Positions 689 to 1,981 of a stretch of 64,000 bases of DNA are shown here, piece after piece; position 1 is the first letter of the stretch, and each line of letters begins with the position of its first letter. The stretch lies in the NCBI GenBank assembly GCA_036611895.1, contig GCA_036611895.1_4766.1; one strand, written 5' to 3'. The notes below the pieces were generated by a model. It saw only the letters and a program-made list of their open reading frames with translations, ran no database searches and had not been told where the DNA came from. A program made the position numbers and the translations under genes. This stretch comes from a phage.

Positions 689-762
689 TACCCACTACTG
701 GATTTGAACCAGTGACCTTCCGATTATTTGTCGGTTGCTTTCCCCGTCTAAGCTAAGTGGGC
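689..762 (-). tRNA. tRNA-like gene, isotype undetermined
   Basis: Minus sense has a 7-bp acceptor stem (GCCCACT/AGTGGGT), D-stem GCTT/AAGC and T-arm ACTGG-TTCAAAT-CCAGT; anticodon arm has one A-A mismatch and loop CAAAUAA with A at position 33. Confidence 0.5.
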
Positions 763-770
763 ATAAATGG

Positions 771-843
771 TTACCCGGACAGGATTCGAACCTGTGTCCT
801 AGTTGGTTTACTAGTGGGGCTTTACCACTAAGCCTACCGGGTA
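771..843 (-). tRNA. tRNA-like gene, isotype undetermined
   Basis: Perfect 7-bp acceptor stem (TACCCGG/CCGGGTA), D-stem GGCT/AGCC and T-arm ACAGG-TTCGAAT-CCTGT; anticodon stem CTAGT/ACTAG encloses a 6-nt loop (or 4-bp stem with 8-nt loop). Confidence 0.5.
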
Positions 844-1232
844 TTAATGAGTGAGCCATGCCAGACTTTAACTGGCTCCTTCTTCGCAATCCTTACATAC
901 CCCTACATAATTATTGCGTTAAGCTTTTTTGTTTAAGTTTAAGTGAAGGCGTTCTTGCTGACTCATAATAGGTTGGGCGTTTGACGAATGACTAGTTCGT
1001 TACTACCCATTTGCCATAAGTACCTGGCGACTTTGGTTTGAGGTGGGAGTCCGAGTCCTGTACAGCCTTACCGTTCTCACATTGGCAGCGTATCTAGAAT
1101 ATCACTTCCGGCAACTGGATTTAACTGTTACACCTCAAATCTGGTAGGGGCGTCCAGAGGTCTCATCTGGTACTTACGCCGTCGTATGGTTACGACTTAC
1201 CCCCATATTTCTTACAATTCGAGAGAACTCTT

Positions 1233-1308
1233 ACCCTGGTTTAGGATTCGAACCTAATTGGGAAGTAGTTTTCCATGACATTTTTCACTTCTTTCTCGGT
1301 AACCAAGA
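1233..1308 (-). other. degenerate tRNA-like element (T-arm only)
   Basis: T-arm TTAGG-TTCGAAT-CCTAA and a G-U-containing acceptor pairing, but no foldable D or anticodon arm by eye. Confidence 0.25.
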
Positions 1309-1328
1309 TAAGAGTTCTCACGAATTGG

Positions 1329-1391
1329 TTCCGGCGTCTGGACTCGAACCAGAACACTCATGCCGTGCACGACACTAGTACCTACACCGGA
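1329..1391 (-). other. degenerate tRNA-like element (T-arm hairpin)
   Basis: T-arm-like TCTGG-TTCGAGT-CCAGA; the only acceptor pairing gives a 63-nt unit, too short for a cloverleaf. Confidence 0.2.
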
Positions 1392-1534
1392 ATTAATTGC
1401 CAGGGATTCCACCTGGCTCCATCTGTTTTTATAGTCACTCAGATATCGTCTGGACTCTTTACTGTGGTCCGTACCGGCTACTTAGAGTAACTACGGTAAA
1501 GATTATTCCACAGCTTACATTGATGGCACAACCC

Positions 1535-1618
1535 ATCAAAGAGTACACTAGCACTGGGCCACGCATAAGTGGGCATCGGCCTTCCTCCCACAGCTAATCT
1601 ACTAATGTACTCATTGAT
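1535..1618. repeat. inverted-repeat-flanked unit A
   Basis: ATCAAAGAGTACACTA at 1535-1550 and TAATGTACTCATTGAT at 1603-1618; arms are 12/13 complementary and enclose about 55 nt. Confidence 0.6.
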
Positions 1619-1791
1619 TGGCCCTCCGTTTCTAATACATGGACGGAGGAACTCCACGGTCGTTTGATAATCAGGACGACTCACTCCTGACTGACGCTTG
1701 GCTTATTAGGCTGCCATCAGAACAACATCATCGTTTGCATTTATCTTTGTGGTCAGTTTCTAAAAAGTCCGCAAAGTCGCTTACGAAAACT

Positions 1792-1892
1792 ATCAAAGAG
1801 TACACTAAGCACAGGTAGCTACCCTGCCGTCTTCTCCACCTACACCGGCTACAGTGTAAACCTCCGCACGTTAGCTTAATGTACTCATTGAT
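1792..1892. repeat. inverted-repeat-flanked unit B, second copy of unit A flanks
   Basis: Same 16-nt flank sequences repeated at 1792-1807 and 1877-1892 around a different approx. 70-nt interior. Confidence 0.6.
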
Positions 1893-1911
1893 AGGATGTC
1901 AGTAGGTCGGG

Positions 1912-1981
1912 GGCTGGATTCGAACCAGCGAAAGAAGTAGCGACCGTCTGCACATGCCTACGTGCTACCCCGACCATTATA
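1912..1981 (-). tRNA. tRNA-like gene, isotype undetermined
   Basis: Perfect 7-bp acceptor stem (GTCGGGG/CCCCGAC), D-stem GCAC/GTGC and T-arm GCTGG-TTCGAAT-CCAGC; anticodon arm is imperfect with a short variable region. Confidence 0.5.

Follow-up and report, generated by a model that had tools for sequence, protein, structure and literature searches.

The stable RNAs C and D of phage T4 are small RNAs of unknown function that lie among the T4 tRNA genes and are cut from a common precursor by tRNA-processing enzymes. Other phage-borne genes encode tRNAs with anticodon loops unlike those of the host; such tRNAs counter anticodon-loop nucleases by loop changes (PMC10264068) and rescue from retron and other tRNA-cleaving effectors (PMC11555353), and they decode and keep 7-nucleotide (nt) anticodon loops. 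Transfer-messenger RNA (tmRNA) is described in a two-piece (permuted) form from Betaproteobacteria and some uncultured phages (RF01850, RF04321), and mycobacteriophage DS6A has a mini-tmRNA that consists of the tRNA-like domain only and was reported to inhibit the tmRNA of the host, perhaps by titrating SmpB (PMC4131195, PMC11915505). Exhaustive tmRNA surveys that covered phages and plasmids detected no ssrA outside mycobacteriophages and Bacillus phage G and reported none in coliphages or plasmids (PMC4131195), with pipelines that depend on the tRNA-like domain (PMC11915505). In N4-type and KP8 phages, a cluster of six tRNAs was reported at one locus, two of them undetermined (PMC6950046).

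Here, we describe an RNA island that shares this locus, in a 64,000-nt stretch of phage DNA (contig GCA_036611895.1_4766.1 of assembly GCA_036611895.1; the whole stretch is referred to as the window). An initial annotation had pointed to three tRNA-like genes with non-canonical anticodon loops, which were taken either for genuine but misfolded tRNAs or for tRNA-like molecules not used for standard decoding. The initial observation holds in large part and its interpretation in part. The three units are real RNA genes, but not of one class: one is a normal tRNA-Ile, one a conserved non-decoding look-alike, and one a decaying copy. The initial annotation had missed two further tRNA-shaped RNAs (positions 1326 to 1392 and 1215 to 1327), the mosaic context of the island, and its notable object, an unannotated RNA with a tmRNA-like tag frame and without a tRNA-like domain (tag RNA); compared to it, unit 1 is ordinary and units 2 and 3 are modestly interesting.

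RESULTS

Three tRNA-like units of different kinds

The window belongs to an N4-like coliphage (Schitoviridae, Enquatrovirinae, Gamaleyavirus), and its positions 500 to 2500 are 94% identical to the Escherichia phages ECBP1, Bp4, and PD38 (blastn). In the records of the relatives, the same stretch is flanked by an N4 gp48-like small gene and by small genes upstream of SSB, and its annotation is restricted to few tRNA calls, labelled Ile, Xle, Thr, Cys, Ala, OTHER, or Pseudo. From about position 2390 down to 548, the list of open reading frames (ORFs) contains none of convincing size, every RNA element detected lies on the minus strand, and an intrinsic terminator with a 9-bp stem (AAGUCCCUCUUCGGAGGGACUU followed by a U tract; 548 to 569, found by terminator scan and in the sequence) marks the end. 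Therefore, we treat the region as a single, protein-free, mosaic RNA island of ~1.85 kb that is read in one direction, from right to left, and is closed by the terminator. It is situated at the end of the N4-type early/middle gene block.

ARAGORN called exactly three tRNA genes in the entire window, all of them on the minus strand and at the places named by the initial annotation: Ile(aat) at 688 to 762, a gene with a 2-nt "anticodon" (6-nt loop) at 768 to 843, and Ala(cgc) at 1904 to 1975. With the Rfam tRNA model (RF00005; gathering score, 29 bits), unit 1 (689 to 762) reached 56.1 bits (E = 2e-9) and unit 2 (771 to 843) reached 42.0 bits (E = 1.5e-5; E values apply to the whole 64 kb), but unit 3 gave no match even at E <= 10.

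In unit 1 (689 to 762, no CCA encoded), the acceptor stem is 7 bp and the D stem 4 bp long, the T loop reads TTCAAAT, and the anticodon loop reads CAAAUAA, with A at position 33, exactly as initially folded; the cloverleaf is the minimum-free-energy fold of this unit. The 7-nt loop of this copy has A37 but carries A instead of U at position 33. U33 is present in all ten Gamaleyavirus relatives examined (loop CUAAUAA, anticodon AAU), and the base at position 33 is the single difference between unit 1 and its four closest copies; A33 is thus private to this genome, either a recent mutation or a sequencing error, in a gene family that has U33. Two pairs have changed in a compensatory way, C2-G71 into U2-A71 and, within the anticodon stem, C-G into U-A, and 100% of the alignment cells in the helices are paired, compared to 17 to 48% when the 3' partners were slid. 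Furthermore, unit 1 carries A35, U36, A37, A38, A73, C4-G69, U12-A23, and C29-G41, as read directly from the sequence, which are identity positions used by the IleRS of Escherichia coli, and AUU makes up 60% of the Ile codons in the long ORFs of the window. An A34 anticodon is unusual for bacteria; it is, however, the state of the whole family and not peculiar to the window. In sum, U33 in all relatives, the compensated stems, the identity positions, and the AUU usage point to a functional tRNA-Ile family with a recent mutation or a sequencing error in this copy, and unit 1 is an ordinary phage tRNA-Ile(AAU) that matches the preferred Ile codon of the phage and has Ile identity positions of the E. 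coli type. It is a full member of the canonical phage tRNAs and differs from them by A34 and, in this isolate, by the change of U33 to A. Of the two options given by the initial annotation, that of a genuine tRNA holds for unit 1, which had been folded correctly.

Unit 2 (768 to 843, with an ACCA 3' end at 768 to 771) also has a cloverleaf as its minimum-free-energy fold, but its anticodon arm is not the regular 5-bp stem with a 7-nt loop. Instead, a 4-bp stem (CUAG/CUAG) carries the 8-nt loop UAAACCAA, or, if a U-A pair closes, a 5-bp stem carries a 6-nt loop, and both loop sizes had been anticipated by the initial annotation. The score of 42 bits was reached only with this arm skipped in the Rfam alignment, so that unit 2 fits RF00005 only if its anticodon arm is ignored. 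The odd arm is kept in seven Gamaleyavirus copies (the window and six relatives), and distant homologues that have the acceptor, D, and T arms in common with unit 2 were found in Klebsiella phage KP8 (locus L141:1200-1275) and Enterobacter phage SABI (L139:1501-1578). The anticodon arm is CAUAG-CAGGCAUG-UUAUG, with an 8-nt loop, in KP8 and CCCAG-AACUUAAGA-CUGGG, with a 9-nt loop, in SABI. Hence, across three genera the hairpin is always present and its loop always has 8 to 9 nt, but the loops (UAAACC/UAA, CAGGCAUG, and AACUUAAGA) are unrelated in sequence.

In the alignment of eight unit 2 copies from the three genera, 6 of 20 pairs have changed on both sides, the stem of the odd arm included, which shows that the acceptor, D, and T helices are kept by compensatory substitutions. 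Indeed, 96.3% of the cells in the helices are paired (23 to 61% with slid 3' partners), none of 500 shuffles was as high, and the observed values were unreached on four of five measures. An (A/G)CCA tail is encoded in five of the eight copies. As judged from these alignments, unit 2 represents a family of tRNA-shaped RNAs across Enquatrovirinae genera that is under selection for the shape of a tRNA without an anticodon. Since the hairpin is kept but its 8- to 9-nt loop is of unconstrained sequence, unit 2 is unable to decode by normal rules, and the proposal of a tRNA-like molecule outside standard decoding holds for this unit.

A second non-decoding RNA of this kind is TLD4 (1326 to 1392), a three-way-junction tRNA-like RNA that was recognized by sequence, fold, homologues, and covariation. 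It consists of a 7-bp acceptor stem, one long arm with the loop GUGCAC, a T arm, and an encoded ACCA, and it has neither a D arm nor an anticodon arm. TLD4 is present in 12 of the 15 Gamaleyavirus relatives examined and in N4-type Enquatrovirus and KP8 phages, where the tRNAscan-SE-based annotation lists it as tRNA-Undet(nnn) or tRNA-OTHER. Five of its pairs have changed on both sides, the degree of pairing is 99.4%, and the mean identity across genera is 94%.

The end of the long TLD4 arm (1361 to 1370) is the palindrome GUGCAC, and the same arm has a canonical 5-bp stem and a 7-nt loop (GUGCACA) with U at the equivalent of position 33 in KP8 and AN24P2. TLD4 resembles E. coli tRNA-Asn in its T arm CUGGUUCGAGUCCAG and its U1-A72 pair.

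Unit 3 (1905 to 1975, no CCA), for which the initial annotation had given the limits 1912 to 1981, is the degenerate member. The mismatched stem and the canonical T arm reported before were found again, but the acceptor stem can be read as 8 bp instead of 7 bp, the D stem as 6 bp (with a 4-nt loop) instead of 4 bp, and U33 is present in the 7-nt anticodon loop GUCGCUA. The stem of this arm contains a C-U mismatch, the arm also has G32 and U37, and the cloverleaf is not the minimum-free-energy fold. The best Rfam match was tRNA-Sec (RF01852) with 31 bits compared to a gathering score of 47 bits; an identity as tRNA-Sec or allo-tRNA was rejected in view of this score, the missing long variable arm, and the missing UCA anticodon. 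Unit 3 is found in only 14 records, all of close relatives within Gamaleyavirus, and five distinct copies have no double change and three broken pairs (the acceptor stem has an A-C, the D stem a U-U, and 30:40 a C, U, or A opposite U); in phage PW8, the T loop has also changed from G to U. Neither the model score nor the state of its helices is that of a tRNA, and GCG, the nominal codon of its CGC anticodon, makes up 2.5% of the Ala codons. To judge from these copies, unit 3 is a tRNA-like element confined to Gamaleyavirus on which constraint is relaxed, and it seems to be decaying.

That all three units are ordinary decoding tRNAs which had been misfolded, or that unit 2 is a quadruplet-reading frameshift suppressor, is largely refuted by these data, and we give it hardly any credence. 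ARAGORN does name Ile for unit 1 and Ala for unit 3, and 8-nt anticodon loops do occur in frameshift-suppressor tRNAs, but Rfam skips the arm of unit 2 and rejects unit 3, and unit 3 combines G32, U37, and a mismatched stem with a rarely used codon. The frameshift suppressor itself was rejected, because no extended anticodon is conserved and the unit 2 loop is unrelated between genera. The initial annotation also mentioned, as a speculation, tRNA-like RNAs that evade or titrate host anticodon nucleases; in this view, units 2 and 3 (and TLD4) would act as decoys for host defence nucleases that target tRNAs, or would evade them. A conserved body with a hypervariable, enlarged loop across genera, as seen in unit 2, is what diversifying pressure would give; this is compatible with a decoy but does not show it. 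The phage tRNAs known to escape nucleases share with unit 2 an anticodon loop unlike that of the host, but they decode and have 7-nt loops, whereas unit 2 has 8- to 9-nt loops without a conserved anticodon and is not able to decode. Furthermore, no loop of any unit resembles a known nuclease target, and no defence or anti-defence gene is linked here, which makes the decoy a very improbable explanation.

A tag RNA without a tRNA-like domain

Between LS-B and LS-A, two long-stem units described below, a permissive Rfam search matched positions 1706 to 1840 to the permuted-tmRNA model with 29.6 bits, below the gathering score of 47 bits. The match rests on the string AUAAAU-GCA-AAC-GAU-GAU-GUU-GUU-CUG-AUG-GCA-GCC-UAA-UAA, and tag conservation and covariation support a tmRNA-like core at about 1621 to 1800. 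In the direction of reading, the core contains a D-loop-like GUUUUCG (1784 to 1790), the motif GCGACUUUGCGG (1769 to 1780), the resume codon GCA (1736 to 1738), which opens the tag frame ANDDVVLMAA with the stops UAA UAA (1706 to 1738), a hairpin (1670 to 1691), a loop-to-downstream pairing of GUCG (1677 to 1680) with CGAC (1659 to 1662), and an H-type pseudoknot (1622 to 1658).

Further copies were collected from IMG/VR by a scan for the first 15 nt of the tag and, independently, by a scan for the downstream pseudoknot. The 22 distinct 33-nt frames all have 10 codons plus a stop, and the tags recovered include ANDDVVLMAA, ANDDLMMVAA, ANDDLMLMAA, ANDDLMLAAA, ANDEQFLAVA, ANEEMYLAVA, ANEEAYLMVA, ANEERFLMAA, and AKDDQFLAVA. 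Single-base codon differences are 364 synonymous to 175 nonsynonymous in the GCA frame, compared to 29:644 and 115:573 in the other frames, and the same signal was obtained with 76 distinct sequences ascertained through the pseudoknot only. The start-less 10-codon tag frame is thus under purifying selection, and the Ala resume codon, the Ala-Ala-stop end, and the conservation at the peptide level are those of tmRNAs (RF00023 and RF04321). Conventional translation of the tag was rejected, as it has neither an AUG nor a Shine-Dalgarno sequence and an in-frame UAG is conserved eight codons upstream; an overlapping AUG frame was rejected as coding for its variable length and its ratio of 29:644.

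The structure is also that of a tmRNA, with the stop codon in a helix that is followed by pseudoknots. RNAalifold placed the stop codon within a covarying helix and predicted two covarying hairpins in addition. A four-helix double-pseudoknot design consists of a hairpin, a 4-bp loop-to-downstream pairing, and then an H-type pseudoknot whose stems take many different sequences. With standard pairs only, this design could be threaded onto 22 of 26 nonredundant sequences, compared to 4 of 1,040 shuffles, and the 4-bp pairing occurs as GUCG/CGAC, CCGA/UCGG, CCAG/CUGG, CCAA/UUGG, and CUAG/CUAG. RNAduplex and whole-RNA folds revealed no long-range partner for the 5' region (a P2-like closing helix) common to all classes or in the window; P1 and locus L091 have a plausible 5'/3' pairing of UUUUCGUCAUGG with UCAUGNNGA, and in the class-I RNAs the hairpin loop ACGAAAC is complementary to GUUUUCGU.

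Divergent tag RNAs with GCU as the resume codon were seen in the Salmonella phages SE131 (L239:680-960; ANDNAFRVAA) and Sajous1 (L240:680-960; ANDSEVLMAA), each with a T-arm-containing tRNA-like unit without G3:U70 about 180 to 200 nt downstream. These copies extend the family beyond the exact patterns of the collection scans.

The relation to tmRNA is closest for the two-piece form. As in two-piece tmRNAs, the resume context is UAAAU-GCA-AAC-GA, the 10-codon tag ends with Ala-Ala, and the stop codon lies in a hairpin upstream of pseudoknots. The D-loop-like GUUUUCG and the 5' motif (U)AGUUUUCGU are similar to GGUUUCGAC, the D loop found in true tmRNAs, and the sequence that precedes the tag can be aligned to PK1 of E. 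coli ssrA, on its 3' side. Sub-threshold matches to the permuted and betaproteobacterial tmRNA models recur in KP8, PWKp5, Bas81, and P1 (26 to 33 bits compared to a gathering score of 47 bits), with such matches in five phage families. The tag pattern was also found in 103 bacterial loci, mostly betaproteobacterial by record title, and ARAGORN recognized a tmRNA in 88 of them, 32 of which were permuted. True permuted tmRNAs exist in viral contigs of IMG/VR, too, but the ARAGORN calls are confined to unrelated low-GC contigs.

In contrast to two-piece tmRNA, the tag RNA has no acceptor stem, T arm, G3:U70, or CCA of its own, and it is mobile between unrelated families of enterobacterial phages. 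ARAGORN, run in tmRNA mode (-m) on all loci, made no call in the enterobacterial-phage copies, and a search for a tRNA-like domain in cis (Rfam at E <= 10, and a custom scan for a T arm plus 7-bp acceptor plus G3:U70) revealed none except a mini-tRNA in KP8. In Bas81, a promoter (TTGACA-17-TAGATT) lies immediately upstream of the UAGUUUUCG motif, at the position that corresponds to the end of LS-A in the window; from the promoter spacing, the RNA appears to start within a few nucleotides of UAGUUUUCG, apparently with no room for an acceptor strand. In P1, the 5' motif follows directly on a terminator, and the tag RNAs of L027 and L091 end in terminators without a T arm. The tag RNA is therefore not filed as a tmRNA, since it lacks the tRNA-like domain and stays below the gathering score; on sequence grounds, it is best described as a tmRNA-derived RNA that is closest to the coding piece of two-piece tmRNAs. 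Full-text literature searches aimed at tmRNA-like RNAs of phages and plasmids found no description of one without a tRNA-like domain in coliphages. That the survey pipelines depend on this domain and that the records listed have no RNA annotation explains why the tag RNA was missed.

The KP8 mini-tRNA (L141:946-1020) lies ~400 nt upstream of the KP8 tag RNA and has no anticodon: GGGCAGU pairs with ACUGUCC, with G3:U70, A73, and an encoded CCA, and a 6-bp stem with the tetraloop ACAG replaces the anticodon arm. Its design (GGGCAGU...ACUGUCC-ACCA) is that of a tmRNA reduced to the tRNA-like domain, as in DS6A, and by blastn it is confined to KP8-like phages. The tag RNA, like the DS6A mini-tmRNA, keeps one half of a tmRNA, but the half kept here is the other one, which is mRNA-like and has no tRNA-like part. 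TLD4 (U1-A72, C3-G70, ACCA) and unit 3 (U3-A70, no CCA) differ from the DS6A RNA in lacking the alanine identity pair G3:U70, and neither is an anticodon-less minihelix with G3:U70 and A73-CCA.

An alternative view is that of a split, phage-borne tmRNA, in which unit 3, unit 2, TLD4, and similar RNAs of other phages would be charged acceptor partners that enter the A site with SmpB, while RNA-RNA contact would bring in the separately made tag RNA. Indeed, the long stem plus tag RNA is directly preceded by a tRNA or tRNA-like unit in the window (unit 3) and in KP8 (a unit 2 homologue), and the permuted-tmRNA model aligns an upstream T arm in PWKp5. In all 44 cases of a tRNA within 1.5 kb, tRNA and tag RNA share the strand; however, of 119 tag RNA copies with 1 kb of flank on each side, 47 lack both a tRNA and a T-arm motif over this distance, and P1 and Bas81 have only ordinary tRNAs nearby. 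The likeness to the coding piece of two-piece betaproteobacterial tmRNAs and the KP8 mini-tRNA itself fit a split molecule, but the mini-tRNA is restricted to KP8-like phages, G3:U70 is present in no unit of the window, and unit 3 is decaying and absent from most carriers of the tag RNA. The contact could be made by the unit 3 loop, whose GUCGCU complements AGCGAC, a conserved motif in the 5' region of the tag RNA, but these 6 nt were spotted after the fact. Weighing both sides, we regard a split tmRNA as unlikely.

The complementarity just mentioned is, on the minus strand, that of GUCGCUA (1938 to 1944) with (A)AGCGAC (1775 to 1781); few motifs in the 5' region of the tag RNA are as conserved as the latter, which has the form UUAGCGAC in P1 and prophage copies. 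The 5' region (1761 to 1792, minus strand) is also collinearly complementary to nt 67 to 107 of E. coli ssrA (L144), around the resume codon, in the blocks UAGUUUUCGU/ACGAAAACUA (10/10), GCGAC/GUCGC, UUUGCGG/CCGCAAA, and CUUUUUA/UAAAAAG. Antisense pairing to the host ssrA was nevertheless rejected, since the duplex energies are no better than with shuffled ssrA and the motif is unchanged in two Salmonella phages; the complementarity is probably a by-product of the homology to the D loop, and an antisense effect on the host tmRNA is the less likely reading. An origin as a prophage att-site remnant of ssrA was rejected as well, because att duplications carry the 3' end of ssrA, whereas the tag RNA has the tag region without the 3' end.

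A 211-nt query around the tag matched 371 phage records; the matches listed are annotated either as "hypothetical protein" or not at all. The carriers comprise P1 and P7 (between dmt and tRNA-Asn), Bas81, Shigella Sf11-type siphoviruses, Klebsiella weberviruses, Vi1-like Ackermannviridae, and Grimontviridae, and copies of N4-like and T1-like phages are up to 97% identical. Furthermore, the tag RNA is present in 657 of 5,426 complete E. coli genomes (about 12%), at 555 places on plasmids (about 83 to 147 kb in the records listed, sizes typical of P1-like phage-plasmids) and at 150 on chromosomes, where PGAP annotates nothing or "hypothetical protein." The tag RNA is hence a mobile tmRNA derivative in at least five unrelated lineages, namely, N4-like phages, P1, T1-like phages (Drexlerviridae)/Webervirus, Vi1-like Ackermannviridae, and Grimontviridae, as well as in prophages.

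Other modules and mosaicism

The remainder of the island is made up of long stems and spacers. LS-A (1790 to 1894; -43.6 kcal/mol, z = -3.9) is a long closing stem of 7 + 13 predicted pairs, with one unpaired position per strand between them and a single internal U-U mismatch, and its 3' strand runs directly into the 5' motif of the tag RNA. LS-B (1535 to 1618; z = -3.0), with the strands AUCAAUGAGUACAUUAG ... CUAGUGUACUCUUUGAU, repeats the stem of LS-A, including the single U-U mismatch. LST5 (1215 to 1327; -44.7 kcal/mol, z = -7.1) combines a long closing stem of 26 predicted pairs with small hairpins and a canonical T arm (UUAGG-UUCGAAU-CCUAA) and abuts the CCA of the preceding unit; in N4-type Enquatrovirus it is the neighbour of TLD4, and in the IMG/VR locus L080 it immediately precedes the tag RNA. 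Between TLD4 and LS-B lies a structured spacer (1396 to 1530; z = -4.0), and positions 1323 to 1456 are 93 to 100% identical in relatives (blastn). The other parts are an ORF-poor upstream leader of the island (1976 to 2390), 84 to 94% conserved in relatives by blastn, and, next to unit 2, one or more ORF-poor spacer RNA segments (844 to 1214) with weak or no predicted structure.

In the long closing stems of the window (1790 to 1894 and 1535 to 1618), of P1 (L004:1660-1760), and of prophages (L022 and L073), the U-U mismatch is kept while the adjoining pairs covary, for example, from CAA-U-GAG/CUC-U-UUG to AGG-U-AAG/CUU-U-CCU. Some of the long stems enclose a T arm and one hairpin, which gives tRNA-like units with extended acceptor stems. 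The long stems may be processing stalks of the RNase III type.

Relatives show how the modules are rearranged. In Shigella phage Moonfish (L142:1200-1300), a fusion inside the T arm joins the 5' half of unit 3 with the 3' half of TLD4, and all that lay between them, including LS-A, the tag RNA, and LS-B, is deleted. Escherichia phage PW8 (L143) is also devoid of the tag RNA and has only LS-stem sequence between LS-A and the TLD4-proximal spacer, consistent with a recombination between the stems of LS-A and LS-B. Since both phages have lost the tag RNA, it is dispensable. Phage PBM-3 has no unit 3, and in ECBP1 and Bp4 (L001:3073-3151 and L127:1472-1550), positions 1457 to 1611 of the window are replaced by a 79-nt tRNA-like gene annotated as Cys(aca) or "tRNA-Pseudo-ACA," another A34 or odd tRNA-like module of the same island. 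Comparison of the loci thus indicates that modules are gained, lost, and fused at shared sequences, and the shared T arms, and probably the shared long stems as well, serve as recombination sites.

Such a record could also be read as decay, with the noncanonical units being functionless dead tRNA genes, recombination leftovers of a shrinking tRNA cluster. Indeed, the canonical Asn, Ser, Thr, and Pro tRNAs that N4-type relatives have at the same locus are lost in the Gamaleyaviruses, T-arm-mediated deletions and chimeras occur, the changes in unit 3 are all disruptive, and some GenBank records label the units "Pseudo." However, the helices of unit 2 and TLD4 are kept through six and five double substitutions, respectively, across three genera, and both RNAs were retained where the canonical tRNAs were lost. 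For the noncanonical units taken together, we therefore hold this explanation to be rather improbable.

A piece of the spacer at 1044 to 1132 (~90 nt) is 96.6% identical in N4-type Enquatrovirus phages and has no stable predicted fold, and a longer piece (about 1029 to 1148) recurs with 83% identity in Enterobacter and Pantoea phages of ~150 kb, under the annotation "hypothetical protein"; the segment around 1044 to 1132 may be another mobile noncoding module. The gammaproteobacterial small RNA STnc100 of Rfam was matched in Klebsiella phage PWKp5 (L006:2497-2711; 51.6 bits compared to a gathering score of 47 bits), ~1 kb downstream of the PWKp5 tag RNA, and weaker, sub-threshold matches were found at 538 to 626 in the window, overlapping the terminator region of the island, and in P1 (L004:2878-2998).

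DISCUSSION

In sum, our data point toward a mosaic RNA island that assembles the three kinds of units with other tRNA-shaped RNAs and a tmRNA-derived tag RNA, an explanation that we consider fairly probable. In our model, the island would be transcribed as one precursor, in which the main purpose of the tRNA-shaped units and the long stems would be to recruit RNase P and the enzymes of 3'-end processing and CCA addition, with the long stems possibly attracting RNase III. Processing would then cut out individual stable RNAs, among them the tag RNA with its 5' end just after LS-A; the fact that the 3' edge of LS-A corresponds to the promoter-defined 5' end in Bas81 fits this processing model. 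The T4 stable RNAs C and D are comparable as small stable RNAs within a tRNA cluster, although they are not tmRNA-like. Of the products, the tRNA-Ile would supplement decoding, and unit 2 and TLD4 would probably have an additional, sequence-specific role.

The tag RNA would most likely be read by ribosomes in a manner like trans-translation, with the acceptor supplied in trans. We rank this use above a titration of SmpB or RNase or a function as regulatory RNA, because trans-translation is the only known reading of a start-less frame that begins with Ala. More specifically, it is conceivable, and here we are tentative, that the template is separate from the acceptor, which could be the tmRNA-SmpB of the host or one of the anticodon-less phage RNAs (such as units 2 and 3 or TLD4), and that stalled products receive a tag specified by the phage, with the ends MAA, VAA, or AVA.

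Several observations weigh against this explanation or parts of it. About 40% of the tag RNA copies have no tRNA-like domain in cis and, thus, no known delivery to the ribosome, and the precursor with its punctuation is inferred throughout. The near-invariance of TLD4 across genera argues that it is more than a processing signal. The relatives are close, so that conservation alone is weak evidence and only double changes count; in unit 1, these are few and restricted to two pairs, and its A33 could be a sequencing error rather than a mutation. In unit 2, the tail is not CCA in three of the eight copies (AUCA twice and CUCC once).

In any case, the calls "tRNA-OTHER," "Undet," and "Pseudo" in N4-like phages are not all junk, since unit 2 and TLD4 are structurally maintained, as judged by their compensated helices, and do not decode. 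Maintained non-decoders of this kind ask for a non-decoding role of tRNA-shaped RNAs in a well-studied group of phages. The tag RNA, with a frame under selection yet without an acceptor and present in P1 and about 12% of the complete E. coli genomes, challenges the rule that template and acceptor form one particle, and tractable systems for this question exist with P1, the BASEL phage Bas81, and the N4-like phages. If template and acceptor are indeed separate, this would be a new mode of trans-translation and would give a function to the "undetermined" tRNAs of N4-like phages.

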